Part shown: piece after piece, positions 27,580-47,614 of the stretch | Layout of the letters: each line of letters opens with the position of its first letter | Position numbering within the stretch: position 1 is the first letter of the stretch | Origin: Candidatus Latescibacterota bacterium | Lineage (GTDB): Bacteria > Latescibacterota > UBA2968 > UBA8231 | Direction: 5' to 3' | Assembly: GCA_965217585.1 (NCBI GenBank) | Contig: OZ244561.1 | Coordinates: 576,001-640,000, forward strand | Length of the DNA: 64,000 nt | Position numbers and translations under genes: made by a program | The notes under the pieces: generated by a model | The model's input: only the letters and a program-made list of their open reading frames with translations | Databases searched by the model: none | What the model was told of the DNA's origin: nothing

Positions 27580-27734
27580 CACGTATCTCCTATGCAAATC
27601 GGGATGTTGTGGAATGAATCCGTATTCGCTCTTCCATGCAGCCTTCAAATAAAAAATAGGCTCCTTAGTAGAATGAGCATGACTTCCGGCCGAGAAAACT
27701 GATACCCGCGTCTTCGTCACGCCGCCTGTCGGGA

Positions 27735-32840: not shown

Positions 32841-33548
32841 ATGCAGAAAGCGCGTTGGGAAAAGGGCAACGTCAGCAACCTGATTTCGCTCGCCCTGTTG
32901 GTGGCGGGCCTCTGGGGGCGCGTTGAGGGCGTCGGCGGCAGCGAGTGGGTGTTGGCGGTTGGATTGTTTGGATTTGCCGGCGGGGCGACCAATTGGTTGG
33001 CAGTAAAGATGCTCTTCGACCGCGTGCCCCTGCTGTACGGATCCGGGGTGATTCCAGCGCGGTTTCGCGCCATCAGGGAAGCGGTCAAAGACGCCATCAT
33101 GCGCTACTTCTTCGACGAGGAATATCTAGAGCGATTCTTCGCCGAGCAGATGGCCGGCGAGGATGTCGGGGAAAAGGTGCAAACGGTGCTAGCGTCCGAT
33201 GAAGTTGACGCGATCATCGACCGCAAACTCGAAGAGTTGGCAGAATCGCCGCAAGGAATGATGATCCAGTTGGTGGGGACGCAGACGGTCAAGCCGCTGG
33301 TCAAGCAGTTCGTGATCGGGTTCGGGAGCGAGATTGCGCCGCTTTTGGCCGGCGGAGCGGGTACAGAAGTCAAAGCGATGCGGGCGCAGGTTGACGGACT
33401 GTTGGAGACCAAGCTAGAGGAACTGACACCCGACCGGGTCAAGGAGATGATGGAGGAAGTAATCCGCGAACACTTGGGCTGGCTAATCGTCTGGGGCAAT
33501 GTGTTCGGTGGCACTATTGGACTGTTATCTAAAGCACTGGGGTATTGA
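32841..33548 (+). CDS. DUF445-like membrane protein
   Basis: TNWLAVKMLF..GVIP and C-terminal HLGWLIVWGNVFGG. Confidence 0.75.
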   Translation: MQKARWEKGNVSNLISLALLVAGLWGRVEGVGGSEWVLAVGLFGFAGGATNWLAVKMLFDRVPLLYGSGVIPARFRAIREAVKDAIMRYFFDEEYLERFFAEQMAGEDVGEKVQTVLASDEVDAIIDRKLEELAESPQGMMIQLVGTQTVKPLVKQFVIGFGSEIAPLLAGGAGTEVKAMRAQVDGLLETKLEELTPDRVKEMMEEVIREHLGWLIVWGNVFGGTIGLLSKALGY

Positions 33549-33549
33549 A

Positions 33550-34356
33550 ATGAGTCAATGGAATTTGCGCGGCGAAGTAGCGGCAGTTATCGGTGGGACC
33601 GGCGTATTGGGCGGAGCGATGGCCCAGGGATTGGCCGAGGCCGGAGCCTCTGTAGCAGTGTTGGGACGAGACCACGACCGGGGGCATAAGCGAGTAGCGG
33701 CGATAGAGGCAGCAGGAGGCACGGGCGTTTTCGCCGCCTGCGACGCCACGGACAAAGCGTCGCTCAAGGCAGCCCATGAAGCGGTCGTCGCGGCATTGGG
33801 TCCCGTCAATGTGCTGCTCAACGCAGCCGGCGGCAATCAGCCGCAGGTGACCCTGAACGACGACCTAGACTTTGCCGCGATAACAACCGACGATTGGCAG
33901 CGCTGTTTCGACCTGAACTTGGGGGCTGGCGCGCTGTTGCCCTGCCAAGAATTCGGGTCGGCCATGGTCGCACGGGGCCGGGGCAGCATCATCAACATCG
34001 CCTCGGTTGCCGCCCACCTGCCGGTTTCGCGGGTGGTGGCGTACTCAGCGGCTAAAGCGGCTGTATTGAACCTAACGCAATTCCTCTCGCGGGAGTGGGC
34101 TGACAAAGGCGTGCGGGTCAACTCCATTACCCCGGGCTTCTTCCCCGCCGAGCAAAACCGCCGCTTGCTCTTTGAAGACGACGGCACCCCAACCGAACGC
34201 GGCCAACAAATCCTCTCCCACACCCCCATGGACCGCTTTGGCCGCCCCGAGGAACTGGTCGGCGCAGCGGTGTTCCTCGCATCGGACGCGGCCAGCGGCT
34301 TCGTCACCGGCACGGACATCCGCGTTGACGGAGGGTTTTTGGCGACGACGATCTAA
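33550..34356 (+). CDS. SDR oxidoreductase (D-mannonate oxidoreductase/gluconate 5-dehydrogenase-like)
   Basis: GGTGVLG, NAAGGN, YSAAK, VNSITPGFF, VDGGF. Confidence 0.9.
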   Translation: MSQWNLRGEVAAVIGGTGVLGGAMAQGLAEAGASVAVLGRDHDRGHKRVAAIEAAGGTGVFAACDATDKASLKAAHEAVVAALGPVNVLLNAAGGNQPQVTLNDDLDFAAITTDDWQRCFDLNLGAGALLPCQEFGSAMVARGRGSIINIASVAAHLPVSRVVAYSAAKAAVLNLTQFLSREWADKGVRVNSITPGFFPAEQNRRLLFEDDGTPTERGQQILSHTPMDRFGRPEELVGAAVFLASDAASGFVTGTDIRVDGGFLATTI

Positions 34357-34382
34357 AGAGCGGCGAGACGCCACGCTTTACA

Positions 34383-34613
34383 GTGAAGAAAAAAACATCA
34401 CAGTTTGCGATTTGTCTCAACAACGAGGGCTATGAGGCTTCTCTTGAAGTCGGAAAAGTGTATCGCGTACTTCCCGATCGGGAGGCCGCTGCGCACGGGT
34501 ACATTCGCATGGTGGATGAAAGTGGCGAAGATTACGCATTTGATGCCGACCGCTTTTACAAGATCGAATTCCCACCCCCGGTTGAAGCAACGCTAGATGC
34601 TGCTCTGCACTAG
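34383..34613 (+). CDS. Small hypothetical protein (76 aa)
   Basis: FAICLNNEGYEASLEVGKVY..VDESGEDY reads as a real small protein; function unknown. Confidence 0.65.
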   Translation: MKKKTSQFAICLNNEGYEASLEVGKVYRVLPDREAAAHGYIRMVDESGEDYAFDADRFYKIEFPPPVEATLDAALH

Positions 34614-34640
34614 GTTATCAGGCGGCTAGGAATATGGTCT

Positions 34641-34683
34641 CGGACATCCGCGTTGACGGAGGTTTTTGGCGACGACGATCTGA
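34641..34683 (+). repeat. Copy of the last ~44 nt of the SDR gene
   Basis: CGGACATCCGCGTTGACGGAGG-TTTTTGGCGACGACGATCT matches 34313-34356 with one G deleted and TGA in place of TAA. Confidence 0.9.
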
Positions 34684-34704
34684 GCTTCGATCACAGAAGC
34701 TTAA

Positions 34705-35121
34705 TCATGGAAATTTTCTGAAATATGTAGCTGATGCTTCATAGCCAATTGCCTTGTAAAACGCTTCAGCCCTTCGAGTTGCCAACGCGATCAATCTTGA
34801 ATTTCTCTCCTTAGCTTTCTTCTCAGCAATCTCCATGAGTCTTCTACCTATGCCTTGCTTCCGGCATTCATCTTCTACGAATAATTCCTCGACCCAACTC
34901 ACAGGACCATTGGCAAAAAAGGTCAGGTGGTGAAACACCAGAACATAGCCCTTAAGATCGGATTCGGATTCTGCCACTATCAGATCAACATTCTCATCTT
35001 TGATCAATCGCGAGAAGGAAGTTTCAAAGGAATGTGCGTCGATCTCAAAACTTGAGGCGAATTTCTTTACAAGAGTTAATAGCTGATCTTGATCTTGATC
35101 CATTGCTGTTCTATAGTGCAT
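34705..35121 (-). CDS. GNAT family N-acetyltransferase (cassette gene)
   Basis: VEELFVEDECRKQGIGRRLM, AFYKAIGY; low GC; ATG lies just after a GTTATAG core. Confidence 0.85.
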   Translation of the reverse strand: MHYRTAMDQDQDQLLTLVKKFASSFEIDAHSFETSFSRLIKDENVDLIVAESESDLKGYVLVFHHLTFFANGPVSWVEELFVEDECRKQGIGRRLMEIAEKKAKERNSRLIALATRRAEAFYKAIGYEASATYFRKFP

Positions 35122-35124
35122 TTT

Positions 35125-35253
35125 CTATAACTCCGAGCAAATACAGTTATATGCTATTTATGCGAAACGAAGGTACGTCTCTTGGTGCATAGTCGCAATC
35201 GCAACGAGCGACCGGATACGAGCCGACAAAGCCGTCCGGTCCTAGTGCGAGAG
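35125..35253 (-). promoter_or_regulatory. Cassette promoter/entry module, copy 1 (Pc-like promoter plus attI-like or collapsed-attC site)
   Basis: Minus strand TTGCGA(35198-35193)-17 nt-TACCTT(35175-35170), then ATATAAC-14 nt-GTTATAG; homologous to 44213-44314. Confidence 0.6.
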
Positions 35254-35522
35254 CGCGCGAGTGGGCCGACAAAGGCGTGCGGGTCAACTCCATCACCCCG
35301 GGCTTTTTCCCCGCCGAGCAAAACCGCCGCTTGCTCTTTGAAGACGACGGCACCCCAACCGAACGCGGCCAACAAATCCTCTCCCACACGCCCATGAACC
35401 GCTTTGGCCGCCCCGAGGAACTGGTCGGCGCAGCGGTGTTCCTCGCATCGGACGCGGCCAGCGGCTTCGTCACCGGCACGGACATCCGCGTTGACGGAGG
35501 GTTTTTGGCGACGACGATCTAA
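35254..35522 (+). pseudogene. Duplicated 3' 269 nt of the SDR gene
   Basis: Matches 34088-34356 with six substitutions counted by eye, five of them synonymous. Confidence 0.95.
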
Positions 35523-35561
35523 GACCACTTCCGCAGCAGCCGGAGGTAGAACAGCGGGTTG
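35523..35561 (-). repeat. Duplicated 3' end of the geranylgeranyl-reductase-family gene
   Basis: Minus strand encodes NPLFYLRLLRKWS*, versus NPLFYLRLLWK* at 44353-44389. Confidence 0.85.
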
Positions 35562-35611
35562 CCGGAGGCCAAGACGCTACAGGCACCGCAGCGCGAACCA
35601 TGCTGTTATTC
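35556..35611 (-). repeat. Truncated (half) attC-like site
   Basis: GGGTTGCCGGAGGCCAAG..CGCAGCGCGAACC-ATGCT-GTTATTC matches the right arms of the other sites; contains the stop codon of the adjacent methyltransferase. Confidence 0.75.
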
Positions 35612-36424
35612 GATGTCCCGCCTCTTCACAACAAGAAGAATGTGGCCACTCGCACCCAAGAGAGAGCGATCTCGATCGGTTCGGTCTATCATCTCGAGCA
35701 TGATAGCCCGTTGTCGCGGATCCGACCAAATTTGATCAAAATTCTGCCAAAACCACGCCACACCCTCGACGGCGATGTGATCCACAATCTGTAAATGTGC
35801 CTCCTCAGCTTCCCGTTCGATCTCATCCGGGTGGTGGAAATAGGCATCAGTAAAGTATCTGGTATTGTCCTTGTTGGGACGGTGGACACCTGTTTCTAAG
35901 TCTTGCCGCACAATATCCAGATATTCCGGATCCTCAAATAAGCCACTTATGAAACCATCGAACATCGACCCAAACCTCGAGATATATGCCACATACCCGA
36001 CCCCGTTGGGGGCAAGCCAATCGGCGACCTTCCGTAGCACTAGGCTGCGCTCGTTTGCATCGGTGAGATGGTACATGGGTCCCAAAAGTAGGACTACATC
36101 ATACTGCTGAGACTCAAGTTCGAGAGATCGTACATCGGCAGTTTCGATCCGAGAGAGCGGATTTGGCGCTTTCTTGTTGATCGACACGGCCTCTTCAACG
36201 TGGTTAGGCATCAAATCAAACAAGGCGACCTTGTGCCCCTTCTCGGCAAGCCAGAACGCGTACGGTCCAGATCCTCCACCAACGTCTACTATCGACAAAC
36301 CAGTTTCATCGGGGAGAAACTGCTCTATGATCTGTTTAGTGCGGAGGAATTCTAGCTCGCCCCGGCCACTGAAGAGACGTTGGCTCTCGTTCTTTCTGTT
36401 GTAATAGGTCGCTATTCGATCCAA
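35606..36424 (-). CDS. Class I SAM-dependent methyltransferase (cassette gene)
   Basis: VDVGGGSGPY, LLLGPMYHL; stop TAA lies within the TAAC core. Confidence 0.85.
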   Translation of the reverse strand: MDRIATYYNRKNESQRLFSGRGELEFLRTKQIIEQFLPDETGLSIVDVGGGSGPYAFWLAEKGHKVALFDLMPNHVEEAVSINKKAPNPLSRIETADVRSLELESQQYDVVLLLGPMYHLTDANERSLVLRKVADWLAPNGVGYVAYISRFGSMFDGFISGLFEDPEYLDIVRQDLETGVHRPNKDNTRYFTDAYFHHPDEIEREAEEAHLQIVDHIAVEGVAWFWQNFDQIWSDPRQRAIMLEMIDRTDRDRSLLGASGHILLVVKRRDIE

Positions 36425-36442
36425 TCAGCACCTCATCTGAGG

Positions 36443-36835
36443 CTATTCGTCGTGGGGCCTCTCAGCCATGAGTGCAAGGATGTTCATCTCGCTATCTCGA
36501 AAGAACGCCATCCACAACTCGTGGTCTTGAAGATCAGCAATCTTGTGAGGCCCTCCATCGAATGGCACGTTCCTACCCTTCAAAACCCGGTAGGCGTCAT
36601 GGATGTCGTCAACTCTGTAATACAGAACAGAGGAATGGATATCATCAGACTGCCCCTCCGGGATACTCAACATGAGGCGTACGCCTGAGCAATCAAAGAA
36701 CGCCATGTTCGGCACCCGAAACAGGAACTGCATTTCCAGTTGATCTCGGTAGAAGGTAACTGCCCTGTCGAGTTCCTTCACGGTGACAGATATTTGCCCT
36801 ATGGTCGATAGACCGAATCCACTATGCTGCGTCAT
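36443..36835 (-). CDS. VOC/glyoxalase/bleomycin-resistance family protein
   Basis: IGQISVTVKELDRAVTFYRD, AFFRDSEMN; GGAGG RBS before ATG 36835. Confidence 0.85.
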   Translation of the reverse strand: MTQHSGFGLSTIGQISVTVKELDRAVTFYRDQLEMQFLFRVPNMAFFDCSGVRLMLSIPEGQSDDIHSSVLYYRVDDIHDAYRVLKGRNVPFDGGPHKIADLQDHELWMAFFRDSEMNILALMAERPHDE

Positions 36836-36918
36836 TCTGGACCTCCTGTGGTGTGGGTTCAATAGCTGCTCCTACGAACCTAAACTACAGAATTCCTCGG
36901 CCGCAGACTTCTCTGAAA

Positions 36919-37791
36919 TCACCTTTTTGTTCTGCGGAATTGTCTCGGCGAGAGACCATAGTGCCGCCGAAAAAGCCAACTGAATGAACCAAGGCTTGCG
37001 AATCCGATTTCTAGGGCAATCTCTGTCACAGTCCGATCTGTAGTCTCCAATAGCCTGGCGGCTCGCTCCAGTCGCTTCATAACAAGATACTGGTGTGGGC
37101 TCTGACCGACTATCTGGCGAAATGTCCGCAGGAAGTGATTCGAGGAGAGACACGCCACCTTAGCCATCGCATCGAGGGAGATCGGCTCCGAGAGGGAGGA
37201 ACAGATATAGTCGCGAGCCATGTGGATGCGACGGTAAAGCTCCTTTCGCGTCGCCGCACGAACGGCCTCAACTGTCTCTACTTCCTTCAAAACCTGATGA
37301 TGTGCACTCAGAAGTCCAACCATCACCGCGTGCATCTGCTCCTCGACCCATCCAAGCTCTTCACTTCGCAGTGAGTACTCTGATCTGAACCGGCTCAGAG
37401 TCGGAGTCAGAACGCGATCCTGCGGGCGAGTGGTCTGGAAGAATTCCAACCGGCGCGACTGACGTGCTGGATCATCAAGAAGCTTGATAGCTCTAGAATT
37501 GATGGATGCGTAGACCTCCTCAGCAAATCCATCCCTGAAGAAGACACAAAATGACCCAACAATCGAAGGAGAGTCGATAGATACCGTGTATTCCTGTCCG
37601 TAATTCAGAATCAGATATGAATGCTCATCGACTTCGATCGCGTGATTGTCGATCTCATACTTTGCCGTGCCATTTGAGAATGACTTGACCGACAGACCTC
37701 CCTTGCCCGTCCACAGATGGTGTTTGCTGGCGGCATTCAGCACTTCGTTGGGGGCACCACTATCGTATGCAGGGCCATTCATGTCGATCAA
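36919..37791 (-). CDS. AraC family transcriptional regulator
   Basis: CLSSNHFLRTF..SPHQY and IALEIGFASLGSFSWLFRR..SPRQFR helix-turn-helix pair. Confidence 0.9.
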   Translation of the reverse strand: MIDMNGPAYDSGAPNEVLNAASKHHLWTGKGGLSVKSFSNGTAKYEIDNHAIEVDEHSYLILNYGQEYTVSIDSPSIVGSFCVFFRDGFAEEVYASINSRAIKLLDDPARQSRRLEFFQTTRPQDRVLTPTLSRFRSEYSLRSEELGWVEEQMHAVMVGLLSAHHQVLKEVETVEAVRAATRKELYRRIHMARDYICSSLSEPISLDAMAKVACLSSNHFLRTFRQIVGQSPHQYLVMKRLERAARLLETTDRTVTEIALEIGFASLGSFSWLFRRHYGLSPRQFRRTKR

Positions 37792-37834
37792 GGCATTCCC
37801 TCAGAGGCTTTTATGAGTTGGTTTTTTCCATTGC

Positions 37835-37928
37835 GGATAACGTTCTCGCCGTGCCCGAACCCCAAGCTTGTCGAGGGGTTGCCGGAGGCCAAGGCGCGAA
37901 GCGCCACAGTGCAAACACGGTGTTATAG
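37835..37928 (-). repeat. attC-like site (94 nt)
   Basis: GGATAAC...GTTATAG with internal AACCCC/GGGGTT, GCC-GGA-GGC and GGCGC-GAA-GCGCC hairpins. Confidence 0.8.
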
Positions 37929-38935
37929 GCTGTGGGAGATCCCGGCACTCTCCAGCAATTCGTCTCCCATCTCGATTCCTCGGTGTGGTAGGCGCATCAA
38001 CTCACCGTGGATATCAAAAGTCGAGAATGGAGGATCTGTGATTTTAGAACCCCACTTTCGGTAGAGGAAGCTGAGTCTATCTGCATAGTAGGCTGCCCAA
38101 ACCACCGGAACGCTCTTATTTCCGACTGAGATAGAGCTCTCCCCTCGTGATAGCCAAGCAATATCTCCCTCGCTTCCGCAACATTCAGCGGTCTAGATTC
38201 ACCCATAAGATCCCCCATTAACCACTGGTGACGCGTCATGACAAGATCCACCAAAGCTGGAGAAAACTCCCCGCTGCTGAAATCCGTGAACGCGACACAG
38301 CCAGTGCCGGCCCCGATCACATTACCTGCACGAACATCCCAATGGCAAAGGATCCAAGGGACGCTTGCGTCAAGAGCCGTTGCATGGCTGTTTTCCAGTA
38401 GTTGCGCTAATTCGTACACTGGCTGTGCGATTTCCGTATCAAGCCGACCGAGCGCGCTGGAAAGTCGATCTTGCGCCCAGCGGCGGACAGGTCGCTCGCG
38501 CACTGGCTGTTCCTGAAATAATCCGGCAGCATTATGAATGCTCGCAAGAACCTTGCCCGTCTTCTTCAGATAGTCGAGATGGCGAGAATCTAACGGCTGG
38601 CCTGGAAGTAGGCTCTCCAAGGAGACTGTATAGTCCCGATATGGAACTGAGAATTCGCCGTTAAGGGTTGGTACAATCTTGGGAACTGGTGCTCTCGAAG
38701 ATGAAAGGTGGTCCACAAATCGAACGATCAACTCTGGCGGCGAGGGACCATCCCACCCTGGATTGGTGCGAAGAACAGAATTTCCTTGCGCGCTGCGCAC
38801 AAAATGGACGTTCCTGGAAGTGGGCGTTTCTACTTGAACGGCTGCGACACCCCAGTGCTTCCAGAGAATGTCTGAAGCTTCCTCAGTCGTCACCATCGGT
38901 GACGTAGATTCTCGATCACGGGGGAATGAAGTCAT
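37923..38935 (-). pseudogene. APH/homoserine-kinase-II-like phosphotransferase, frameshifted near 38108
   Basis: LASIH, HWDVRAGN (HGD expected), FTDF; coding-like sequence VWAAYYADRL..SL* continues in another frame to a stop inside the attC core at 37923. Confidence 0.65.
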
Positions 38936-40178
38936 GACTCTTACTGTTTTTGCGAAACTGGCGTTGTAGTATTTTCCACAAGGGGTTCATTCCTCGTGGC
39001 TTGAATTGCTCGGGATCTTTGCCCTGTTCGACAGCTTGCCAATAATGCCAACCCATCTTGTGACTCGATGCGATTTCATAATCTAACCCCGTCCATGATC
39101 CATCACCGCGAAAGGCGTAAAACGACCAATGCCAACCTTGGCTGTTATAGATTTCTATTAGGTCGCTCAGGTAGGCCGCAGCGCCTTCGAGCCGGCGGTC
39201 GTACCAGAATTCTGAAGCTATGATTCGGTGAGAAGGTATCTCATATCGCTCAGAAAACCGCTGCACCGCGTTGATCTCCTCCGCAAGACGATCGATAGTC
39301 CACGACTCTATAGGACCGTTCCACCACTTCGGAACTCGGTCTGGATAGGCGTACCGGTCCTTATTGGCTCGATAAGTCACCATCTGCCACGGACCGGGGT
39401 TGTGAAAAGCGTACAACACTTTGTCATCATCTACAGGGCGATTGAAGTCGAACGCTTGAGGAGCGGCATAGAACCAGCCATCGAGCATGATGGGCGTATC
39501 TGCGTCTACTGAACGGATGGATTCGACCATCCGCTGGTTAAATCGGTTGAGGTCAGCTGGCGTATTCTGGATGTCCTGAAACCATTGGCTGAAATTCTCG
39601 TCCGGTTCTGCAAAACCGAATACCTTCTCTGGATGTGGTTCATTGAGAGGGTTGTAAGCCACGATTGCAGGATGCTTTTCCAAACGCATTGCTAACTGAC
39701 GCCAGAAATTGAAGGCTTGCTTATGGTAGCTTTCGTCACGCCAGAGCCGGCCATCATCTTGGTTCTCATTCAGCTGCTTCCAGCGTCCACCGGGCAAGCT
39801 GGCCATCGCAAGGACAACTTTGATACCATTGCTCTCGGCTTCATTGAGTGCTTCTACCAACAGGGCTAGATCGGTCTCATTGATTGCTGCGAAATTATCT
39901 GCGTTGCCGATTAGGAAGTCTCTATTATCGGCGGGCCATGCATCGGGTAAAATCCGAACATAATCCAGTCCCAGTTCACCTGCCGCCCTGTACCACTCAG
40001 GACGATGTCGCTCGTTTTGCTGATTAGCTCCCTTACGCTGCTTTTCCCAAAAGCCAATCTTGGGAGCATCGGCCATAACGCCGCTGGTGAAGCACAAAAT
40101 AGATATCATTGAAACTATGTATCTATAAATACCCCGTTGCCGCCCTTCTTTACGACCGTTTCCGTTCCTAATAAGCAT
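38916..40178 (-). CDS. Glycoside hydrolase family 5 (cellulase-like); start may be 40109
   Basis: YNPLNEPHPE acid/base motif, YAFH, IIASEF nucleophile, WHWSFYAF. Confidence 0.8.
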   Translation of the reverse strand: MLIRNGNGRKEGRQRGIYRYIVSMISILCFTSGVMADAPKIGFWEKQRKGANQQNERHRPEWYRAAGELGLDYVRILPDAWPADNRDFLIGNADNFAAINETDLALLVEALNEAESNGIKVVLAMASLPGGRWKQLNENQDDGRLWRDESYHKQAFNFWRQLAMRLEKHPAIVAYNPLNEPHPEKVFGFAEPDENFSQWFQDIQNTPADLNRFNQRMVESIRSVDADTPIMLDGWFYAAPQAFDFNRPVDDDKVLYAFHNPGPWQMVTYRANKDRYAYPDRVPKWWNGPIESWTIDRLAEEINAVQRFSERYEIPSHRIIASEFWYDRRLEGAAAYLSDLIEIYNSQGWHWSFYAFRGDGSWTGLDYEIASSHKMGWHYWQAVEQGKDPEQFKPRGMNPLWKILQRQFRKNSKSHDFIPP

Positions 40179-40201
40179 CTGTGCTTTATGGCTTCACGTT
40201 C

Positions 40202-40273
40202 CTGTAACGTTTCAGGGTTTGCGAACCCCGAAGGGATTGCCAAGGCCAAGCCGCCGCAGTTCGCTCTAAACTT
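40202..40273 (-). repeat. Degenerate attC-like site (right GTTA core missing)
   Basis: CTGTAAC-GTTTCAG-GGTTTGCGAACCCCGAAGGGATTGCCAAGGCCAAG.. shares its left arm with the sites at 42919 and 43582. Confidence 0.7.
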
Positions 40274-40276
40274 CAA

Positions 40277-41000
40277 TCAGGCTTTCTTCCTGCGAAATGC
40301 CAAAGCAGTTTCGTAGTGCTTGGTGATCGATCCTCCGTAGTTCTTGTTTATCAGGTCAGCGATGCCGTCAAATAGATGCGTGCGATTGAATTCGGGCAGC
40401 GCGATATGGTCAGAATAGGTGCCAATGAGTTTGATGTACTGTTCCGCAGAATAGTTCGCTGTCCATGCGTACACTCGGTGGATAGGATCGGCAAAAGCAG
40501 TAGTTCCAGGTTCTGGGGACTCTGATGTCGTCGGAGTACTGGGATCCCGAGGGGAATCTGAAACTACATAATGCTTGCTATAAACTTCCTGGACTTCCGC
40601 AAAGAAACCTTCGTCTTTTCTTACGTGTTGGTTGGAGAAGATGGCCAATGATCCCCTAGCCTTCAGGGTGTCACGGGCTCTAATGAATCTGACTCTTGGA
40701 CTCACCCAGCGGAATGCAGTCGCGGAGATCACAAGGTCAAACTTGCTAGCCGAGTCCCAATCTGCGAAAGGACACAGGACGAAGCGAACGTTCTTGTAGT
40801 TGTTGAGTCGCGCCCGCGCAACCTCGATCAAATCTTGGCCAATATCCAAACAGGTCATTTCGCAACCGAGGGTAGCAAATAATCTCGAAGCCTGTCCGAT
40901 TCCACACCCGACTTCCAGGATTTTTCCGCTCCTATCGATTCCGGACGTCATAGAGCGAGGCAATGGTATTGAAAGTAGTTCTGAGATCAGGGCGGGGCAT
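40277..41000 (-). pseudogene. Class I SAM methyltransferase with a frameshifting lesion near its N-terminus
   Basis: ATG 41000 gives MPRPDLRTTFNTIASLYD and then goes out of frame with SGIDRSGKILEVGCGIGQA..SATAFRW. Confidence 0.65.
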
Positions 41001-41025
41001 TAGAATTCCCATGACACGCAAACGC

Positions 41026-41790
41026 CTATGATGGCAGGGCGATTGCCTTGGCAATCAAGAGTGTCGGCACTATGCTTTCTCGACGCCTCTCCACCAAGTC
41101 TGCTACAGAATCAAGCGGTTCAGAGATCTCGGCAAGTTGGAATCCACTTCTGATCAAGGTATTGAAGTACGTTGAAAGCGTTCGGTGGTGGCTACCAAGC
41201 GTGCCACACATCCCGATTCCATCCGAGTACCATTTGCCTTCAAGGCCATACCGTGAAACACGCAATGCCTTGAAATTTCCCTCTTCGTCAAACTCCTCCT
41301 GTGGATTCTCTGCATTGAACGGAGGGAAAAGGCACGGATGAAGAATTGTGAAGATGAACTTGCCATTGTCGAGAAGTATCCGACGGACATTGAACAATGT
41401 TGCCGTTAGGTCAGGGATATCCATGAGTGCCATGTTGCAAGTAACGGCATCCATGCTGGCGTCGGACACCTGATTCAGCGATTGTGCATCGTCCAGGACA
41501 TAGGTGATGCCGTGGTCAGCAGAATGCTCCTTTGCATGCCGCAGCAGCATCTGTGAAATATCAACACCCGTAACGAGAGCACCTCGACTCGCTAGGATGC
41601 GAGACAGATACCCTTCACCGCATCCCAAGTCACATATACTGGTCCCTTGGACATCGCCCAGCATAGTCAGCATGACTTCTACCGAGGGCTGGATACGCCT
41701 ATTCCTATCCGGAACATTCCTATCCAGCCAGTTGAGATAGAAATCACCTACCTTGTCATATTCAGAATCTGCCACCTCATCGATTCCCAT
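41026..41790 (-). CDS. Class I SAM-dependent methyltransferase
   Basis: CDLGCGEG, CNMALMDIPD, ILHPC, HRTLSTY. Confidence 0.85.
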   Translation of the reverse strand: MGIDEVADSEYDKVGDFYLNWLDRNVPDRNRRIQPSVEVMLTMLGDVQGTSICDLGCGEGYLSRILASRGALVTGVDISQMLLRHAKEHSADHGITYVLDDAQSLNQVSDASMDAVTCNMALMDIPDLTATLFNVRRILLDNGKFIFTILHPCLFPPFNAENPQEEFDEEGNFKALRVSRYGLEGKWYSDGIGMCGTLGSHHRTLSTYFNTLIRSGFQLAEISEPLDSVADLVERRRESIVPTLLIAKAIALPS

Positions 41791-41869
41791 GGTATCAGTC
41801 CCGTTGGGACACGGGATCTTCGACCGTCCAAGCTACGCGTTATAAAACAAGTGACCTTTCCCAGCGACA

Positions 41870-41985
41870 TATAGCAATCCTGAATGACTTGAACGATTAG
41901 AGCTGCGGATCGTCTTGTGCATACTATTCTGTGTCCATCTGCGTCCATCTGCGGATTATCTTATGAATGATTTAGGATTGCTATA
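41870..41985. mobile_element. MITE-like element (~116 bp) with terminal inverted repeats and TA ends
   Basis: Left end TATAGCAATCCTGAATGA, right end TGATTTAGGATTGCTATA (reverse complement TATAGCAATCCTAAATCA); internal 10-nt repeats GTGTCCATCT/GCGTCCATCT/GCGG. Confidence 0.7.
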
Positions 41986-42018
41986 TCACATTATTCTCTG
42001 CATTTCTGATTCAATTTC

Positions 42019-42072
42019 AGCTAACGTTTTCGCCATGCCCGAACCGCGAAGCCAGGCACGGACGTGTTATGT
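42019..42072 (-). repeat. Short attC-like site (54 nt)
   Basis: AGCTAAC-GTTTTCG-CCATGCC...GGCACGG-ACGT-GTTATGT. Confidence 0.75.
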
Positions 42073-42091
42073 GAAGTGCACTATTTCCCTC

Positions 42092-42886
42092 TTAGTCTAC
42101 GAAGTCATGGATCCTTTGATACACGCTCAACTTGGCCTGATCCAATTCTTGCCCATACTCCCGGAAAAACAAGGGAACCCACTCACCACCCAGATTTCTG
42201 CGAATCGTGTTGTACGCGGCGACAAAGTCGAGATAGCGATCTCCTATTCCTGCATAACCCCAATCAATGTAGCCACTCAGGTGGCCATTGACGATCATGA
42301 CGTTGGGAAGGCAATAATCCCCGTGGGTGAACACCACGTCTTCTGGCGGCAGGTCGGCTCGTATGCTTGCCAGTTCATCCCGCAGGACATTTCTAGTGCC
42401 GCCTTTGGGGATCTGACCATCCAGCACTCCTGAATCAATCAGGTCTGTCGCCCACGCAAAATAGCGTTCAAAGCGCCAATCCAATGGGCACGAATCAACT
42501 GGAATTGCGTGAATCTCGCGAAGTCCATGAGCGAACATACGTATTAGACCTGGGGTATCTGTCTTGGCGTCTTCGTGGACACCAGAGACGCCAGCGATTC
42601 GGGTCATCAGCAGATACTGAGTATTGTTTTCCTCGTGGAAGCAGACCACGCTAGGCACACTCAGTTTGTCGTGCAACCAAGACATCGCCGCTTTTTCGGC
42701 GCGAAGATCAGATTCTTGCGGCGCAGCGAGCGCATCTCTGATTTTGAGGAACAAACTCTGCTTGCTCGGGTGAGTAAATGAGAATACATCGGCGCACGAT
42801 TCAGTCCTGAGGTTGTCGCCATTTGAGGCGAAACCCTTCAGATGGGCTTGGACCGGATCTGGTAGATCTTGGACTATCAACGTCAA
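42092..42886 (-). CDS. Aminoglycoside 3'-phosphotransferase (APH(3'))-like protein, cassette gene
   Basis: LFLK, YLLMTRIAG, IHAIPVDSCP, VFTHGDYCLPNV, GYIDWGYAGIGDRYLD. Confidence 0.85.
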   Translation of the reverse strand: MTLIVQDLPDPVQAHLKGFASNGDNLRTESCADVFSFTHPSKQSLFLKIRDALAAPQESDLRAEKAAMSWLHDKLSVPSVVCFHEENNTQYLLMTRIAGVSGVHEDAKTDTPGLIRMFAHGLREIHAIPVDSCPLDWRFERYFAWATDLIDSGVLDGQIPKGGTRNVLRDELASIRADLPPEDVVFTHGDYCLPNVMIVNGHLSGYIDWGYAGIGDRYLDFVAAYNTIRRNLGGEWVPLFFREYGQELDQAKLSVYQRIHDFVD

Positions 42887-42918
42887 CCTGCGTTCGAGGA
42901 TTGCCTAAAATTCATTTC

Positions 42919-43010
42919 ACATAACGGTTCTCCGGTTTGCGAACCCCCGGAGGGGGTTGCCCGAAGGGCCAATCCGCGAATGTGCCGCAGCGTAAACTGC
43001 GCTGTTAAAT
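42919..43010 (-). repeat. attC-like site (92 nt)
   Basis: ACATAAC-8 nt-GGTTTGCG...CGTAAACT-5 nt-GTTAAAT with AACCCCC-GGA-GGGGGTT and GCCC-GAA-GGGC hairpins. Confidence 0.85.
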
Positions 43011-43043
43011 GACGTGGGCCAATCCGCGGCAAGATATAACGGG

Positions 43044-43550
43044 CTAAACCTCCTCGGCGAAGTCCGATGAGAGAGCTCCCCGAAATCCAATGCGTTTGTG
43101 CGGATCTCTATATTGAGTCAATTCGTGATGTCCGATCATGAAGCCTTGGGACTTCCAGAACGTCAGGGCGCTCGGATTGTCGCGGCGTACATTCAAGTCA
43201 ATCCGATCGATACCCAAGCCGTCGGTGATTTCCGTTACGGCTTGTACAAGGAATGACCCAATGCCCTCCCGGCGTTGCGCAGGAATAACGTAGAAGTCAT
43301 TGATCTTCGCGCTAGTGCCACTAATTGAAAATGAAACAAATCCAACTGGGGACCCTTCGCTGAGGCACCAGAAAATCCTTGGTTCCGGACTGGAAAGGGG
43401 AAACCGATCTGCGAAATACACATCGCGGCGATCCGATGAACGTACTGTATCAGCAGTTGGCATTGTCTCCAACCAGTAGGCATCAACCAGTGGCCGAAAC
43501 CTATTCTCATCGGAAGGAAGCACCTGCTCGAATTCAAGGCGAACGCTCAA
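43044..43550 (-). CDS. GNAT family N-acetyltransferase (cassette gene)
   Basis: FYVIPAQRREGIGS, NPSALTFWKSQGF. Confidence 0.85.
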   Translation of the reverse strand: MSVRLEFEQVLPSDENRFRPLVDAYWLETMPTADTVRSSDRRDVYFADRFPLSSPEPRIFWCLSEGSPVGFVSFSISGTSAKINDFYVIPAQRREGIGSFLVQAVTEITDGLGIDRIDLNVRRDNPSALTFWKSQGFMIGHHELTQYRDPHKRIGFRGALSSDFAEEV

Positions 43551-43581
43551 AACTCATTTCCTCTCACATAAGACCCATGTC

Positions 43582-43675
43582 ATTTAACGTTTTCACGGTT
43601 TGCGAACCCAAGAAGCGAGTTGCCCGTAGGCCAAGCCGCCTGAAGGGCGGCGCAGCGCGAGCCGAGCCGTTATAG
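43582..43675 (-). repeat. attC-like site (94 nt)
   Basis: ATTTAAC-8 nt-GGTTTGCG...CGCGAGCC-5 nt-GTTATAG with internal hairpins. Confidence 0.85.
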
Positions 43676-43685
43676 GACGTGTGTT

Positions 43686-44126
43686 CTACTTACGAGCTTC
43701 CATTAAATGTAGCAGTAAGTCGATCTTGTCGTCATAATTGGCGACAAGTTTGGGAAGTGCTCTGACATCGGCCCAAAAGAAATCGAATGGATGGACTATC
43801 GATCCGTCCTCCGCGTATTCTCCATGGCACCAGTTGTCCTTTGTTGGTCCTTCTACAGACAAATGAAAGAACCAGCGGTACTGTAGTTCATCGGTCCCGC
43901 AATCCCGCATGTCCCGGGTATCCTGGGCCAGGAACTGCTCATATCTGAGATCGGACAACCCGGTTTCCTCTTCTGCTTCCCGCATCACGGCATCCTGGGG
44001 ATTCTCTCCGGGCTCAATCGTTCCGGCTGGAACTTGAATGCCAGCTTCCGGTGCCTCGGGTTGAGTAAAGAGGAGCAGGCGGCTCCCGTTGGTGATATAG
44101 GCGTAAGCTCTGTGCCGGATTTTCAT
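43686..44126 (-). CDS. NUDIX hydrolase (first cassette gene)
   Basis: GTIEPGENPQDAVMREAEEETGL Nudix box. Confidence 0.9.
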   Translation of the reverse strand: MKIRHRAYAYITNGSRLLLFTQPEAPEAGIQVPAGTIEPGENPQDAVMREAEEETGLSDLRYEQFLAQDTRDMRDCGTDELQYRWFFHLSVEGPTKDNWCHGEYAEDGSIVHPFDFFWADVRALPKLVANYDDKIDLLLHLMEARK

Positions 44127-44170
44127 CTCAATTGGAGAACTATGAAGTCACAGTGTTTGTTTCTCATGTC

Positions 44171-44314
44171 CTATAACTGCTTGCACCCGAACAAGTAGTT
44201 CGGGTAACGGCCGCTAGATGCTATTTATGCGCAACGAAGGTATATCTCTTGGTGCATAGTCGCAATCGCAACGAGCGGCTGAGCGGACAAGGCCGTCCGG
44301 TCCCCGTGCGAGAG
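44171..44314 (-). promoter_or_regulatory. Cassette promoter/entry module, copy 2
   Basis: Minus strand TTGCGA(44265-44260)-17 nt-TACCTT(44242-44237), then the hairpin ACCCGAAC/GTTCGGGT and a GTTATAG core at 44177-44171. Confidence 0.6.
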
Positions 44315-44339
44315 CGCGGGAGTGGGCCGACCAAGGCGT
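44315..44339 (+). repeat. 25-nt remnant of the SDR gene starting at the same breakpoint as the 35254 copy
   Basis: CGCGGGAGTGGGCCGACCAAGGCGT versus CGCGGGAGTGGGCTGACAAAGGCGT at 34088. Confidence 0.8.
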
Positions 44340-44352
44340 TCTGAGACCGTGC

Positions 44353-45594
44353 CTACTTCCACAGCAACCGGAGGTAAAACAGCGGGTTGGTCAACACCTT
44401 GCGCGGCACGGCGTCGGCCATCATGCCGCAGATCAGGTCGCTGACCTCGGCGTTTTTGGCGGCCTTGCGAATGACCAAGTTCATCAGATAGGGCCAGCAG
44501 CCCAAATTGTGCAGCTTGGTGCTCAGCTTCAGCTCGCTGCCCAGCGCATCCCACAGCCGATCCTCGTAGCGCCGCAAAAAGCCAGCCGAATAATCCCCCG
44601 CCTCCCGGGCCTGAGTTGCAGTCTCCACGGCAAAGCGGGCCGAGTACAGAGCATTGCCAATGCCCTCGCCCGTGAACGGGTCAATCAGGCCGGCTGCGTC
44701 GCCCAAGAGCAAAAAGCCGTTGCCGTGCGCCGGTCGCCGCCGCGAGCCAACCGGCAAGTTCCAGCCGACCGGGGCTTCGAGGGGACGGGCGTCGCGAAAG
44801 CGCGCGCCAAAGGTCGTACTCGCCACTGCGGCTGCGAGCGCGTCCTTGAGATCGATGCCGCGCGCCTTGATATCTCGGTGATCCATGCCGATGCCGACAT
44901 TGGCGCGGTTGCCCTCTAAAGGAAAGATCCAAAAATACCCGGGCCGCACCTCGTCTATAAAGTGCAATTCTATCTGATCGCTCAGGTCCGCCACGCCCCC
45001 GAAGTACTGCCGCAGAGCCACCATCCAATCGCGGCCCTCGTGGCGGTATAATCCGCTCTTGCGGGCGACGATCGAATTAAAGCCATCGCACCCTAACACC
45101 AAGGGCGCGCGAAATTCCAAGCGCGTGCCATCGGCTGTACGCCCCCGCACCCCGCAGACCTGCTCGCCTTCTCTCAGGAGATCGCGCACGTTAAAACCCT
45201 CTACGGTATGGGCGGCTGCGGCCTGCGCCTTGGCAAAGAGAAAGTCGTCGAAGACCTCGCGGCGGATGACAAAGCCCTCCATCGGCAGCACCCGACCAGT
45301 CAGGGCGTTGTGCAGATCGTAGCTGCTCAGGTCAATGGACGCGGCGGTCGCGTCTGGGCTGCCGAAGACAATACGGGCAACGGTCGCCCCAGGCAGATTG
45401 CACACCTCCTCGAAAAGCCCCAGATCGTGGAGGATGGCCACCGTCTTGCCAGAGAGGGCGTCGCCGCAGATCTTGTCGCGGGGGAAGCACTGCTTGTCCA
45501 GCAGCAGAGCCGCCAGCCCGTGACGCTGCGCATACAGCGCGGCCGTGGCACCAGCCGGACCGCCGCCGACGATAATTAGGTCGTAGGTTTGCAC
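44353..45594 (-). CDS. Geranylgeranyl reductase family FAD-dependent oxidoreductase
   Basis: GGGPAG, FPRDKICGD, GYFWIFP, GDAAGLIDPFTGEGI. Confidence 0.9.
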   Translation of the reverse strand: MQTYDLIIVGGGPAGATAALYAQRHGLAALLLDKQCFPRDKICGDALSGKTVAILHDLGLFEEVCNLPGATVARIVFGSPDATAASIDLSSYDLHNALTGRVLPMEGFVIRREVFDDFLFAKAQAAAAHTVEGFNVRDLLREGEQVCGVRGRTADGTRLEFRAPLVLGCDGFNSIVARKSGLYRHEGRDWMVALRQYFGGVADLSDQIELHFIDEVRPGYFWIFPLEGNRANVGIGMDHRDIKARGIDLKDALAAAVASTTFGARFRDARPLEAPVGWNLPVGSRRRPAHGNGFLLLGDAAGLIDPFTGEGIGNALYSARFAVETATQAREAGDYSAGFLRRYEDRLWDALGSELKLSTKLHNLGCWPYLMNLVIRKAAKNAEVSDLICGMMADAVPRKVLTNPLFYLRLLWK

Positions 45595-45715
45595 GTGGCC
45601 CAGAAAATAGTCCGTCCAGCCCTCGCTACAAGGGCGCAGGCCGAACTTGCTTTGTAGATGATCTTCCTTACATTTTCGGTTTTGTCAACGCAATCGCCAA
45701 AGGAGCCACAACGCG

Positions 45716-47614
45716 ATGTCCGAAGACGTCCACACCGAAAATCCACAAGTCGAAAAACGGGCTTTTCAAACCGAGGTCCAACAGGTACTGCACCTGCTGG
45801 TCCATTCGCTGTACACCCAAAAAGAAATTTTCTTGCGCGAGCTGATCTCCAATGCCTCAGACGCGCTGGACAAAATTCACCACCGCTCGCTGACCGACCG
45901 CAATATCCGCGACCCCGACGCCGAATTGGACATTGAGCTCGAGGTGTCGAGCAGCAACAAGACCCTGACCATCCGCGACCGGGGGATCGGCATGACCCGC
46001 GACGAGGTCAATGAGAATATCGGCACCATTGCCCGCTCCGGCTCGGCTGAGTTTACCGCCAAGCTGGCCGACGCCGACGATGAGCAAGAGAAGCTCAAAC
46101 TGATCGGCCAATTCGGGGTGGGCTTCTACTCGGTCTTCATGGTGGCCGACCGAGTGGTGCTCACCACGCGCTCGGCCGACCCAGAAGCCGACGGGGTGCT
46201 GTGGGAATCCACCGGCGACGGGGCCTACACCCTATCCCACGCCGACAAGGCCGACCGCGGCACCGAGATCAAGCTCTACATCCGTTCGGACTGCGAGGAA
46301 TTTCTCGATGCCCACCAGCTAGAGGCCATCATCCGCAAGCACTCGGATTTTGTCGCGTACCCCATCAAGGTCGCCGGCAAACAGGTCAACGACACGGCCG
46401 CGCTGTGGACCCGGCCGCGCAACGAAATTACTCCCGAACAATACAACGAGTTTTACACGCACCTGACCGGCGACCCCGACGAGCCACTCGCGTCCGAGCA
46501 CATCGTCGTGGATGTGCCGATCCAATTCTACGCCGTGCTCTACATTCCCAAGCGCGCACCGGTCCAATGGCTGCACGCAGAGCCGACGATCTCGCTCAAC
46601 CTGCACGTCGCACGGGTTTTTATCCAAGACGACTGCAAGGAGCTTTTGCCGCTGTGGCTGCGCTTTGTGCGCGGCGTGGTTGACTGCGACGACCTGCCGC
46701 TCAACGTCTCGCGCGAAACCCTCCAGCAAAATCCCATCATCACCAAAATCCGCGCCACCTTAGTCCGGCGCATCATCGGCATGTTGGAGGGAATGGCGAA
46801 GAAGGATGAAGAGCAGTACATGGCCTTTTGGCACGCCTGCGGCACCATCCTCAAAGAGGGCGTGGCCACCGATGCCGCGCACCAAGCCCAGCTCGCCAAG
46901 CTCCTGCGCTACCGCTCCTCGCTAGCCGACGACGACACGCCCTACATTTCGTTGCAGAACTACGTCGATCGGATGCAGAGCGAGCAGGACAAGATCTACT
47001 ACCTCGCCGGCGAGAACAAAGAGGCCATCGCCCAAAGCCCCCTGTTGGAGGCCTTCCGCAAGCGCGGCATAGAGGTGCTCTACTTCGACGAACCGGTCGA
47101 TGAATGGGTCATCCAAGGGCTGCAAAAGTTCGCCGACAAAGAGTTTGCGGGCGTGGATGCGGCCGAGCTGAACCTGGACGAGGATGCGGTCAAGTTGGAA
47201 GGGGTCGACGATCAGAAGGCCGAAGCCATCGAGCTGCTCGCCTTTCTCAAGCAGAAGCTCGCCGGCCGGGTCGAGGACGTGGTCGAGTCCAAGCGGCTGA
47301 CCGACAGCCCCTGCCTGCTAGTCGCCAGCCAAGGCGGCTTGAGCCGCAACATGGAGCGGCTGATGAAAATGACCGATCGCGAATTCAAAGGATCACTGCG
47401 CACGCTAGAAATCAATCGCCAACACCCGATCATCCGCAACATGGCCGCCGTACTCAAGCGCGACCGCGACTCCGAGCAATTGGCGAACTGGGCCCATTTT
47501 CTGGTTGATTTCGTATTGTTAGGCGAGGGCACAGTCGAGGATCCACAGCGGCTGAGCCAGAGCTTGCAGTCCATCATGGGAGCGGCCACCGCGCATGCCG
47601 CCGAGGAGAGTTAG
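45716..47614 (+). CDS. htpG: Chaperone HtpG (Hsp90)
   Basis: IFLRELISNASDA, IGQFGVGFYS, LPLNVSRE. Confidence 0.95.
   Translation: MSEDVHTENPQVEKRAFQTEVQQVLHLLVHSLYTQKEIFLRELISNASDALDKIHHRSLTDRNIRDPDAELDIELEVSSSNKTLTIRDRGIGMTRDEVNENIGTIARSGSAEFTAKLADADDEQEKLKLIGQFGVGFYSVFMVADRVVLTTRSADPEADGVLWESTGDGAYTLSHADKADRGTEIKLYIRSDCEEFLDAHQLEAIIRKHSDFVAYPIKVAGKQVNDTAALWTRPRNEITPEQYNEFYTHLTGDPDEPLASEHIVVDVPIQFYAVLYIPKRAPVQWLHAEPTISLNLHVARVFIQDDCKELLPLWLRFVRGVVDCDDLPLNVSRETLQQNPIITKIRATLVRRIIGMLEGMAKKDEEQYMAFWHACGTILKEGVATDAAHQAQLAKLLRYRSSLADDDTPYISLQNYVDRMQSEQDKIYYLAGENKEAIAQSPLLEAFRKRGIEVLYFDEPVDEWVIQGLQKFADKEFAGVDAAELNLDEDAVKLEGVDDQKAEAIELLAFLKQKLAGRVEDVVESKRLTDSPCLLVASQGGLSRNMERLMKMTDREFKGSLRTLEINRQHPIIRNMAAVLKRDRDSEQLANWAHFLVDFVLLGEGTVEDPQRLSQSLQSIMGAATAHAAEES

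Follow-up and report, generated by a model that had tools for sequence, protein, structure and literature searches.

Positions 34.3 to 44.4 kb of the 64,000-nucleotide stretch analysed in this study (hereafter the window; genome positions 576001-640000 of a Latescibacterota bacterium) are best read, with good though not full confidence, as an integron cassette array that has lost its integrase gene but has retained an attI-type site and the platform upstream of it. Arrays without an integrase are known as CALIN (attC-site clusters that have no integron-integrase). The insert lies between two convergent genes, one encoding a geranylgeranyl-reductase-like flavoprotein (GGR; 44353-45594, minus strand, Pfam FAD_binding_3 and GGR_cat), which forms the conserved upstream flank and is 90-95% identical in amino acids across about 20 Latescibacterota metagenome-assembled genomes (MAGs), and the other a short-chain dehydrogenase (SDR; 33499-34356, plus strand, Pfam adh_short), likewise a conserved flank. 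The host genome is itself a single-contig MAG of 7.32 Mb with 94.6% completeness and 6.9% contamination. The GC content of the insert is 0.49-0.54, compared with about 0.60-0.65 in the flanks, and its 11 genes, as identified from the open reading frame (ORF) listing and Pfam, are all located on the minus strand, just as had been stated in a first-pass annotation made from the letters of the DNA. The attI-like site with its platform, a second platform copy, duplicated fragments of the flanking genes and further arrays in the same genome are features that go beyond that annotation.

The gene units of the insert are followed by six imperfect palindromes, each starting with ..TAAC and ending with GTTA.., and every one of them comes after a stop codon. 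All six were found at the coordinates originally assigned to them. A covariance model built from such sites (R1) gave exactly six matches over the 64-kb window, which are these six sites, and none elsewhere in it. On the minus strand they are attC1 (43575-43686, 89.4 bits), attC2 (42912-43021, 87.5 bits), the short-type attC3 (42006-42078, 45.5 bits), attC4 with a degenerate left (R'') box (40192-40280, 41.8 bits), attC5 (37822-37938, 73.1 bits) and the truncated attC6 (35556-35618), which lacks its right half and is joined to a duplicated piece of the GGR 3' end. Long inner motifs are common to four of the six. When R1 was run over both strands of 510 kb of sequence from 25 sources, all 23 matches lay downstream of GGR and on the GGR strand, and in the whole host genome the model found 20 sites (E<=0.01) at seven loci.

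To describe the sites, the R''/R' and L''/L' structure was named by hand and its pairing was then counted on an alignment of 19 sequences, comprising the five complete window sites, nine sites from elsewhere in the same genome and five from relatives. In the hand-named structure 72.8% of the cells were paired, compared with 25-37% when the partner was slid by one to three columns, and the AAC/GTT core was paired in 18-19 of the 19 sites. Both sides change in seven of the ten pairs of the inner L''/L' stem, for which the share of paired cells is 74%, and the inner stem of attC3 carries compensatory changes relative to the long site type. The sites thus show what is expected of attC, namely inverse R''/R' cores at the 3' end of a cassette and an inner stem that is kept by structure. 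The predicted single-strand DNA folds had z values of -0.3 to -2.4 relative to shuffled sequences, with +0.66 for attC3; since this is barely more stable than the shuffles, stability alone is no argument for attC. The reading of the palindromes as attC sites is supported by the paired cores, the covarying inner stem and the complementarity to the cassette starts, which is described below.

The three cassettes nearest to the attI-like site are single-gene units encoding a NUDIX hydrolase (43686-44126), a GNAT acetyltransferase (43044-43550) and an APH-family phosphotransferase (42092-42886; Pfam APH 117.5 bits), all assigned by Pfam and all on the minus strand. The two ends of each of these cassettes are complementary at 10 of 10 positions. 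The two arms of one and the same site match at only 7-8 of 10 positions, with 3-4 of the six variable positions, and the outer R positions are unpaired within the site in 11-13 of the 19 sequences. Hence, the variable outer bases complement the start of the site's own cassette and not the other arm of the site, which points to a crossover at G|TT; with a cut between G and TT, the bases following GTT belong to the next cassette. Moreover, the breakpoints with relatives cluster at the crossover, e.g., homology begins at 40203-40208, around the G at 40208. The complementary ends that the first-pass annotation had reported for five cassettes hold in full for the NUDIX, GNAT and APH cassettes. For the two distal ones the ends match at 7 of 10 positions (7/8 in the 8-nt frame used earlier), or at three of the six variable positions, compared with a mean of 2.76 and a maximum of 4 in non-cognate pairs (n = 25), one of which even reaches 8/8 in the 8-nt frame; only the three full matches thus rise above background. 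Both stop codons said to fall inside a TAAC core do so. One belongs to the methyltransferase gene MT3 (35606-35608) and the other to the tail frame of a kinase gene (ORF 37923-38105, stop at 37923-37925), which is reached only across a frameshift. It had also been proposed that the newest cassettes are those proximal to the promoter. The three perfect-ended cassettes indeed adjoin the attI-like site, which supports the proposal in part.

Upstream of the first cassette lies a conserved non-coding platform block of about 150 nt that contains the attI-like site. Its first copy (the X-core, 44215-44313, minus strand; repeats D2 and D5) is followed by the attI-like site at 44171-44214 on the same strand, which consists of an 8-bp hairpin CCCGAAC..GTTCGGG and then GCAAGCA with the crossover G|TTATAGGAC (G at 44177). 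The DNA fold of this site has a z value of -2.4, and it is nearly invariant over TTCG..TACAAGCAGTTA (alignment A6). The second platform copy (35131-35253, minus strand; repeats D2 and D5) is 86% identical to the first according to BLAST, has a shortened attI-like end with the crossover GTTATAGAAA (G at 35131), and precedes a gene for a small GNAT acetyltransferase (34705-35121, minus strand, Pfam), behind which no R1 match and thus no attC was found. In seven close relatives (loci L013, L014, L015, L018, L022, L079 and L091) the platform stands directly after GGR and is then followed by differing cassettes. A homologous block is present in G032, a genome of the same family and another genus, with a divergently transcribed IntI-like gene on one side of it and an attC array on the other; the window platform (genome positions 620174-620265) matches this region with 72% identity over 92 nt (E 1.6e-6), while other platform copies of the host genome match it at E 6e-18. 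This suggests that the platform is the attI/promoter platform of the integron lineage. Two junctions bear on the attI-like site directly. Whereas the MT1 cassette of the window has its start (GTTAGCTGAAATTGAATCAG..) next to attC3, in L066 this start meets the attI-like site at GTTA, and the same join occurs in a contig of the independent metagenome run X8 (joint 42021 to 44174, shorter side 39 nt, four shared letters). Judged by homology and by these junctions, the head of the array thus appears to carry an attI, as that of a complete integron does.

The host genome has about ten platform copies, often inside attC clusters; those outside the window are at 3290.4, 3284.5, 3276.5, 2189.5, 2187.7, 2167.8, 1998.6 and 1778.5 kb. 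In addition, a platform core without the attI-like hairpin is located at genome positions 3327728-3327795 (L011), upstream of a gene for a PhyH-family dioxygenase and at a distance of about 20 nt from it, a placement that fits a promoter or leader role for the platform core.

The genome encodes no recognisable integron integrase. The first-pass annotation had noted that the 64 kb contain no tyrosine recombinase, and we found that the integrase-less state extends to the whole 7.32-Mb contig, which has only five PF00589 tyrosine recombinases, all of them outside 576001-640000. Three of the five were compared with NCBIfam, which identified one as XerD (347 bits), one as XerC-like (657 kb, 313 bits, just below the XerC cut-off) and one as a weaker Xer-like protein (6.416 Mb); the other two are at 3.360 and 1.233 Mb. 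The recombinase nearest to the array is the XerC-like one (genome 657027-657548, L002), about 36 kb away and 17 kb past the end of the window. The integron-integrase model TIGR02249 gave nothing over its cut-off in the genome (best score 84 bits), and tblastn searches that used six proteins from relatives, either IntI or IntI-like, detected only the XerD, XerC-like and weaker Xer-like genes, with 26-39% identity over the longer matches. A search for intI remnants within 1.5 kb of 12 platform copies gave only noise (all E > 0.03). Thus, the adjacent intI of a complete integron is absent and no integrase is found nearby, as in CALIN, while the six same-strand sites, detected with our self-built model, are spaced at 0.7-2.4 kb, i.e., closer than the limit of 4 kb set for neighbouring attC sites in a CALIN of two or more. 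The same imbalance is seen in the genus, in which attC matches occur in 20 of the 30 other genomes and an IntI or IntI-like gene in only two of the 30 (G015 and G017); the gene of G015 is a canonical IntI split over two frames.

In related genera, arrays of the same attC family, with 19 to 80 R1 matches, adjoin IntI-like genes. In G032 the model finds 17 sites within 18 kb and 80 genome-wide, and at least 45 of them form one run (2,011,268-2,060,610) that ends at the recombinase gene. Such array-linked recombinases are present in G032 (L098/L105), G052 (L109), G056 (L110) and G059 (L112), and weakly in G042; relative to the array the gene is divergent in G032 and G056 and co-oriented in G052 and G059. 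TIGR02249 is the top NCBIfam match of the G032 and G056 proteins, with 216-241 bits against a cut-off of 265, and it scores 222 bits for the protein of G017 (L097), second to NF040815 (229.6 bits). The array-linked proteins have the same N-terminal SAM-like domain and the same catalytic residues as canonical IntI. However, they lack the IntI-specific extra domain. The proteins of G032, G056, G017 and G052 are without about 41 residues (gaps of 25+6+10 in alignment A5) corresponding to the ALARKYP..REWGWQYVFP block, which is present in the canonical IntI of G038 and G015. In the cited part of PMC7790495 this extra domain (I2 helix) is treated as the novelty through which single-stranded attC sites can be recombined. 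The domain-less group is part of a very large recombinase family that is spread over many phyla (among the 8000 candidates scored, 6933 proteins reached E<=1e-30), and since the family is so large and widespread, sequence alone does not justify an integron-specific label for the group. The 16 kb examined around the canonical IntI gene of G038 contain no R1-type attC, so that this IntI shows no link to the site family, and the recombinase contigs of G017 and G015, at about 2.4 kb, are too short to show an array.

The interval between SDR and GGR behaves as a hot spot. In eight relatives that are distant or have an empty site (L024, L051, L065, L067, L076, L080, L081 and L090) the two genes abut, with 0-15 nt between their stops, and in close relatives they are 1 to more than 10 kb apart with differing contents. 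The comparison of this interval across relatives, which the first-pass annotation had proposed as a check, revealed that the gene order is not conserved. Cassettes have been added, removed and rearranged, and the breakpoints fall at the GTTA core. The fourth window cassette contains two methyltransferase genes, MT1 (41026-41790) and MT2 (40277-40963), and spans 40277-41790. The fifth (37923-40178) contains a GH5 glycosidase (38916-40178) and an APH-family kinase (37997-38935, continued in another frame to 37923), and the sixth (35606-37791) an AraC regulator (36919-37791), a VOC/glyoxalase protein (36443-36862) and the methyltransferase MT3 (35606-36424); all are on the minus strand and assigned by Pfam. 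L013 has the order MT1, attC, MT2, an extra cassette, and then GH5-kinase-AraC-VOC-MT3 at 98.8% identity to the window, a block that includes an attC with the same score as attC5 (73.1 bits). In L014 and L018 GH5 is directly followed by MT3, and in L016 by SDR, so that GH5 occurs without the kinase in all three. L019 has MT2, GH5-kinase, MT3, platform, APH and a GNAT, and L091 has platform, MT2 and MT3. MT3 therefore follows the kinase in L019 and stands alone after GH5 in L014 and L018. The APH cassette takes other positions in L013, L019 and L020.

The cassettes shared with relatives are 93.5-98.8% identical, compared with 87-94% for GGR, HSP90 and the 5' part of SDR, which suggests that cassettes were exchanged after the species had split. 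Within the host genome, a paralogue of the GNAT cassette (96.5%; genome 4303372-4304026) lies in another array, bounded on the left by the same crossover sequence and on the right by its own attC. This attC (L007, genome 4303273-4304030) has about 50 extra nucleotides in its central loop. Homologues of the NUDIX gene (86-89%) are present in 11 of 30 same-genus genomes, and in L114-L116, the three whose flanks were read out of five searched, they are located away from GGR, SDR and the platform. Three contig joints between attC sites (35609 to 37837, 37860 to 42047 and 42972 to 43585) had sides shorter than 30 nt or unknown letters between them, and were not used as evidence.

The REARRANGEMENT of the locus consists of two modules in tandem, each headed by a platform; X1 comprises six cassettes and X2 a single gene. 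Read along the minus strand, GGR is followed by a small SDR remnant, platform 1, the six cassettes and the truncated attC6; then come a 35-nt copy of the GGR 3' end, a 269-nt copy of the SDR 3' part, platform 2 and the small GNAT gene, and finally a 44-nt copy of the SDR 3' end, the small ORF called unit B, and SDR. The SDR remnant between the GGR stop and the platform (44314-44352, minus strand; alignment A1, repeat D5) consists of a 26-nt piece and a tail. The 35-nt GGR copy (35527-35561, minus strand) is 91% identical to its source (repeat D11), the 269-nt SDR copy (35254-35522, plus strand; repeat D1, alignment A1) is 98% identical to 34088-34356, and the third copy of the SDR 3' end measures 44 nt (34641-34684, plus strand; repeats D8 and D9). 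At the join of attC6 and the GGR end, repeats D4 and D11 overlap by GGGTTG, and by eye the shared stretch is CAACCCGC; an intact counterpart of attC6 exists in L018 (13259-13372, 88.5 bits). The ends of the SDR fragments, at 44, about 57 and 269 nt, vary from copy to copy and from genome to genome, which argues against a fixed attachment site and fits recombination in which one side was anchored by homology and the other side was illegitimate. An assembly error confined to this MAG does not account for the junction, because a contig from an independent run (X12) spans 35469-36436, with small gaps, over the SDR copy, the GGR fragment and attC6, and because the order MT3, attC6, SDR fragment, platform is common to L019. 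Unit B (34383-34613, plus strand) is an ORF of 76 amino acids with no Pfam match. An about 90% identical unit lies between HSP90 and GGR in L023, L027, L028 and L030, indicating that this small unit has moved.

The distal half of the array is decaying: one attC is deleted, one truncated and one degenerate, and two genes are damaged. The deletion concerns the attC between MT1 and MT2, where about 150 nt (an attC of 95.7 bits and a spacer) that are present in L013 are missing from the window. In comparison with L013, the window sequence also diverges early in MT2 and about 50 nt are missing there, so that the 5' end of this gene is damaged. The left box that attC4 has lost is intact in its L013 counterpart (16867-16974). 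The kinase gene occupies two frames. Three other runs yielded contigs with an extra A behind 38108, which would extend the kinase frame to the stop inside the TAAC of attC5, and the frameshift may be real or a homopolymer error of this assembly. The three cassettes nearest to attI are intact. A further sign of erosion is found in the leader of the MT1 cassette, where a repeated element about 120 nt long and bearing terminal inverted repeats (41868-41987, no strand assigned) resembles a miniature inverted-repeat transposable element and has more than 25 genomic copies of 83-95% identity. Outside the insert, the window contains a second patch of low GC content (0.49-0.54) at 25525-27720, where a 731-residue KAP-family P-loop NTPase stands beside ORFs without family matches; possibly, this patch is another acquired island.

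From these arrangements we infer the following course of events. The cassettes would be promoterless gene units ending in a folded attC, captured one by one at the attI-like site (44177) by a tyrosine recombinase of the integron type whose cut falls between G and TT, as a result of which each cassette would start with bases complementing the left arm of its own attC. They would probably be transcribed from the platform. The array sits in a genus-wide hot spot between the convergent GGR and SDR genes, and modules X1 and X2 may have been joined there by events that were not site-specific, relying on homology on one side and on the short stretch shared by attC6 and the GGR end on the other, and leaving duplicated fragments of both flanking genes behind. 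The integrase would then have been lost, or the modules might have been imported without it. As the genome contains no integron integrase, the array cannot shuffle alone. The proximal cassettes are putative recombination-competent substrates, while the distal part could be fusing into operon-like DNA, and further change might come from a recombinase acting in trans or from homologous exchange between strains.

Several observations weigh against this interpretation. The recombinase gene of G032, apart from lacking the IntI domain, has an in-frame stop (TAA), and the link between the platform and an integrase therefore rests on an atypical and possibly dead gene. No sigma-70-type promoter was detected in 44170-44350 by a scan that does not cover the promoter types of this phylum, which makes expression from the platform a conjecture. 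The end matches of both distal cassettes are no better than chance. A shuffle control for the pairing percentage was modest, with 12 of 500 shuffles reaching the observed value, and a scan of 33000-46000 against Rfam 15 (E<=1) gave no match. RNAalifold applied to the 19 sites predicted an inner stem of only two pairs and no outer stem, which is the reason why the structure was named by hand and counted, and R1 was derived from sites of the host genome and is not the model of IntegronFinder. The metagenomic material consists of assembled contigs of 23 runs, in which excision circles are not visible. Finally, in a MAG of this completeness and contamination an integrase on a plasmid or an unbinned element could be missed.

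It is conceivable, though we would give it only about one chance in a few, that the attC system of Latescibacterota is run by an IntI-related recombinase without the I2/extra domain, and that in this genus platform and cassettes persist and multiply as integrase-free modules which are exchanged between species, either through such a recombinase acting in trans or through recombination anchored by homology; on this view the window array would be one module pair and not just a fossil. Another possibility, which we consider unlikely, is that the array is not stranded at all and is served in trans by a resident non-canonical recombinase (XerC, XerD or one of the three others) or by the integrases of passing elements. 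The perfect ends of the three attI-proximal cassettes would agree with this, as would the cassettes being more alike between species than the core genes and the wide occurrence of attC in a genus that has so few IntI genes; furthermore, the arrays of related genera abut domain-less IntI-like recombinases, and this attC family may not need a canonical IntI. However, the host genome has no member of the IntI-like group, the tblastn matches being confined to XerD, the XerC-like gene and one other at 26-39% identity, and several junctions are not site-specific, as seen from the three SDR breakpoints and the short-stretch join. The similarity of the cassettes could also be explained by homologous exchange of whole segments between strains. 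The distal sites are decaying, and this decay favours a stranded array over one that is serviced in trans.

Distinctly less probable is that the insert represents a genomic island brought in by an integrative element targeting the SDR 3' end, with the SDR repeats as attachment sites and the cassettes as cargo. In its favour, the SDR 3' end is present three or four times, most of the insert-bearing relatives have a short fragment of this end adjoining GGR, and the GC content drops over the whole insert. An attachment site, however, would give a fixed boundary, whereas the SDR fragments end at three different points and one copy is internally deleted; in addition, the insert contains no genes for mobility, integrase genes included, and duplication has also affected the GGR 3' end, via the short shared stretch. 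That the palindromes are ordinary intergenic repeats or operon terminators without any link to integrons is hardly credible, because, despite the missing Rfam match and the weak folds, three cassettes have perfectly complementary ends, the stems covary, sites of this family occur in relatives as arrays of 19 to 80 matches beside IntI-like genes, and the site-bounded gene units occur in differing orders and loci.

An integrase-less integron array with a retained attI-type site accordingly remains the reading we prefer, and its interest lies in the fact that attC clusters lacking an integrase are frequent yet poorly explained, while here their origin can be read directly. In about twenty related chromosomes the same site is empty, filled or differently filled, so that the genus offers a natural series for the origin of arrays, their movement between species and their decay after the loss of the integrase. 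The finding also brings an uncultured phylum into the range of integron-type cassette arrays; a full-text literature search combining Latescibacter and integron returned no work on the integrons of this phylum, judged by titles and the beginnings of abstracts. The interest would be higher if the domain-less array-linked recombinases proved to be working integrases. If they are active, searches for integrons would have to change, since current tools would label such integrons as integrase-less.

Among known systems, the sedentary chromosomal integrons of Xanthomonas reportedly occupy a conserved locus and frequently show integrase decay. The resemblance comprises a fixed chromosomal site across the genus, attC sites that are homogeneous within a lineage, and a content that differs between close relatives. 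The window array differs in that the integrase has left no trace at the locus or genome-wide, and in its tandem of two platform-headed modules with duplicated flank fragments. Isolated cassettes (SALIN) and the insertion of cassettes at genomic attG sites, described in the cited part of bioRxiv 10.1101/2022.09.11.507474, show one way in which cassettes can end up at a distance from any integrase. However, the array studied here does not begin at an arbitrary genomic GTT; it begins at a conserved attI-like site that is homologous to a recombinase-adjacent site.

The closest match is CALIN, defined in the consulted sections of Cury et al. 2016 (PMC4889954) by at least two same-strand attC sites less than 4 kb apart with no intI nearby, and carrying mostly cassettes of unknown or non-resistance functions. 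That survey lists 279 CALIN in 2,484 genomes, 95% of them, like the window array, without a recognisable intI pseudogene nearby, and the corresponding part of Loot et al. (bioRxiv 10.1101/2022.09.11.507474) gives 2,961 CALIN in 21,105 genomes. Unlike these, the window array retains an attI-type site and a platform recognisable by homology, the platform exists in about ten copies, and the host belongs to Latescibacterota; a retained attI or platform is something that IntegronFinder cannot score for unknown integron classes. Thus, CALIN as a kind are already known, and what is new here is the host phylum, the recognisable retained attI platform, the multiplication of this platform and the dense comparative series in which they can be followed.

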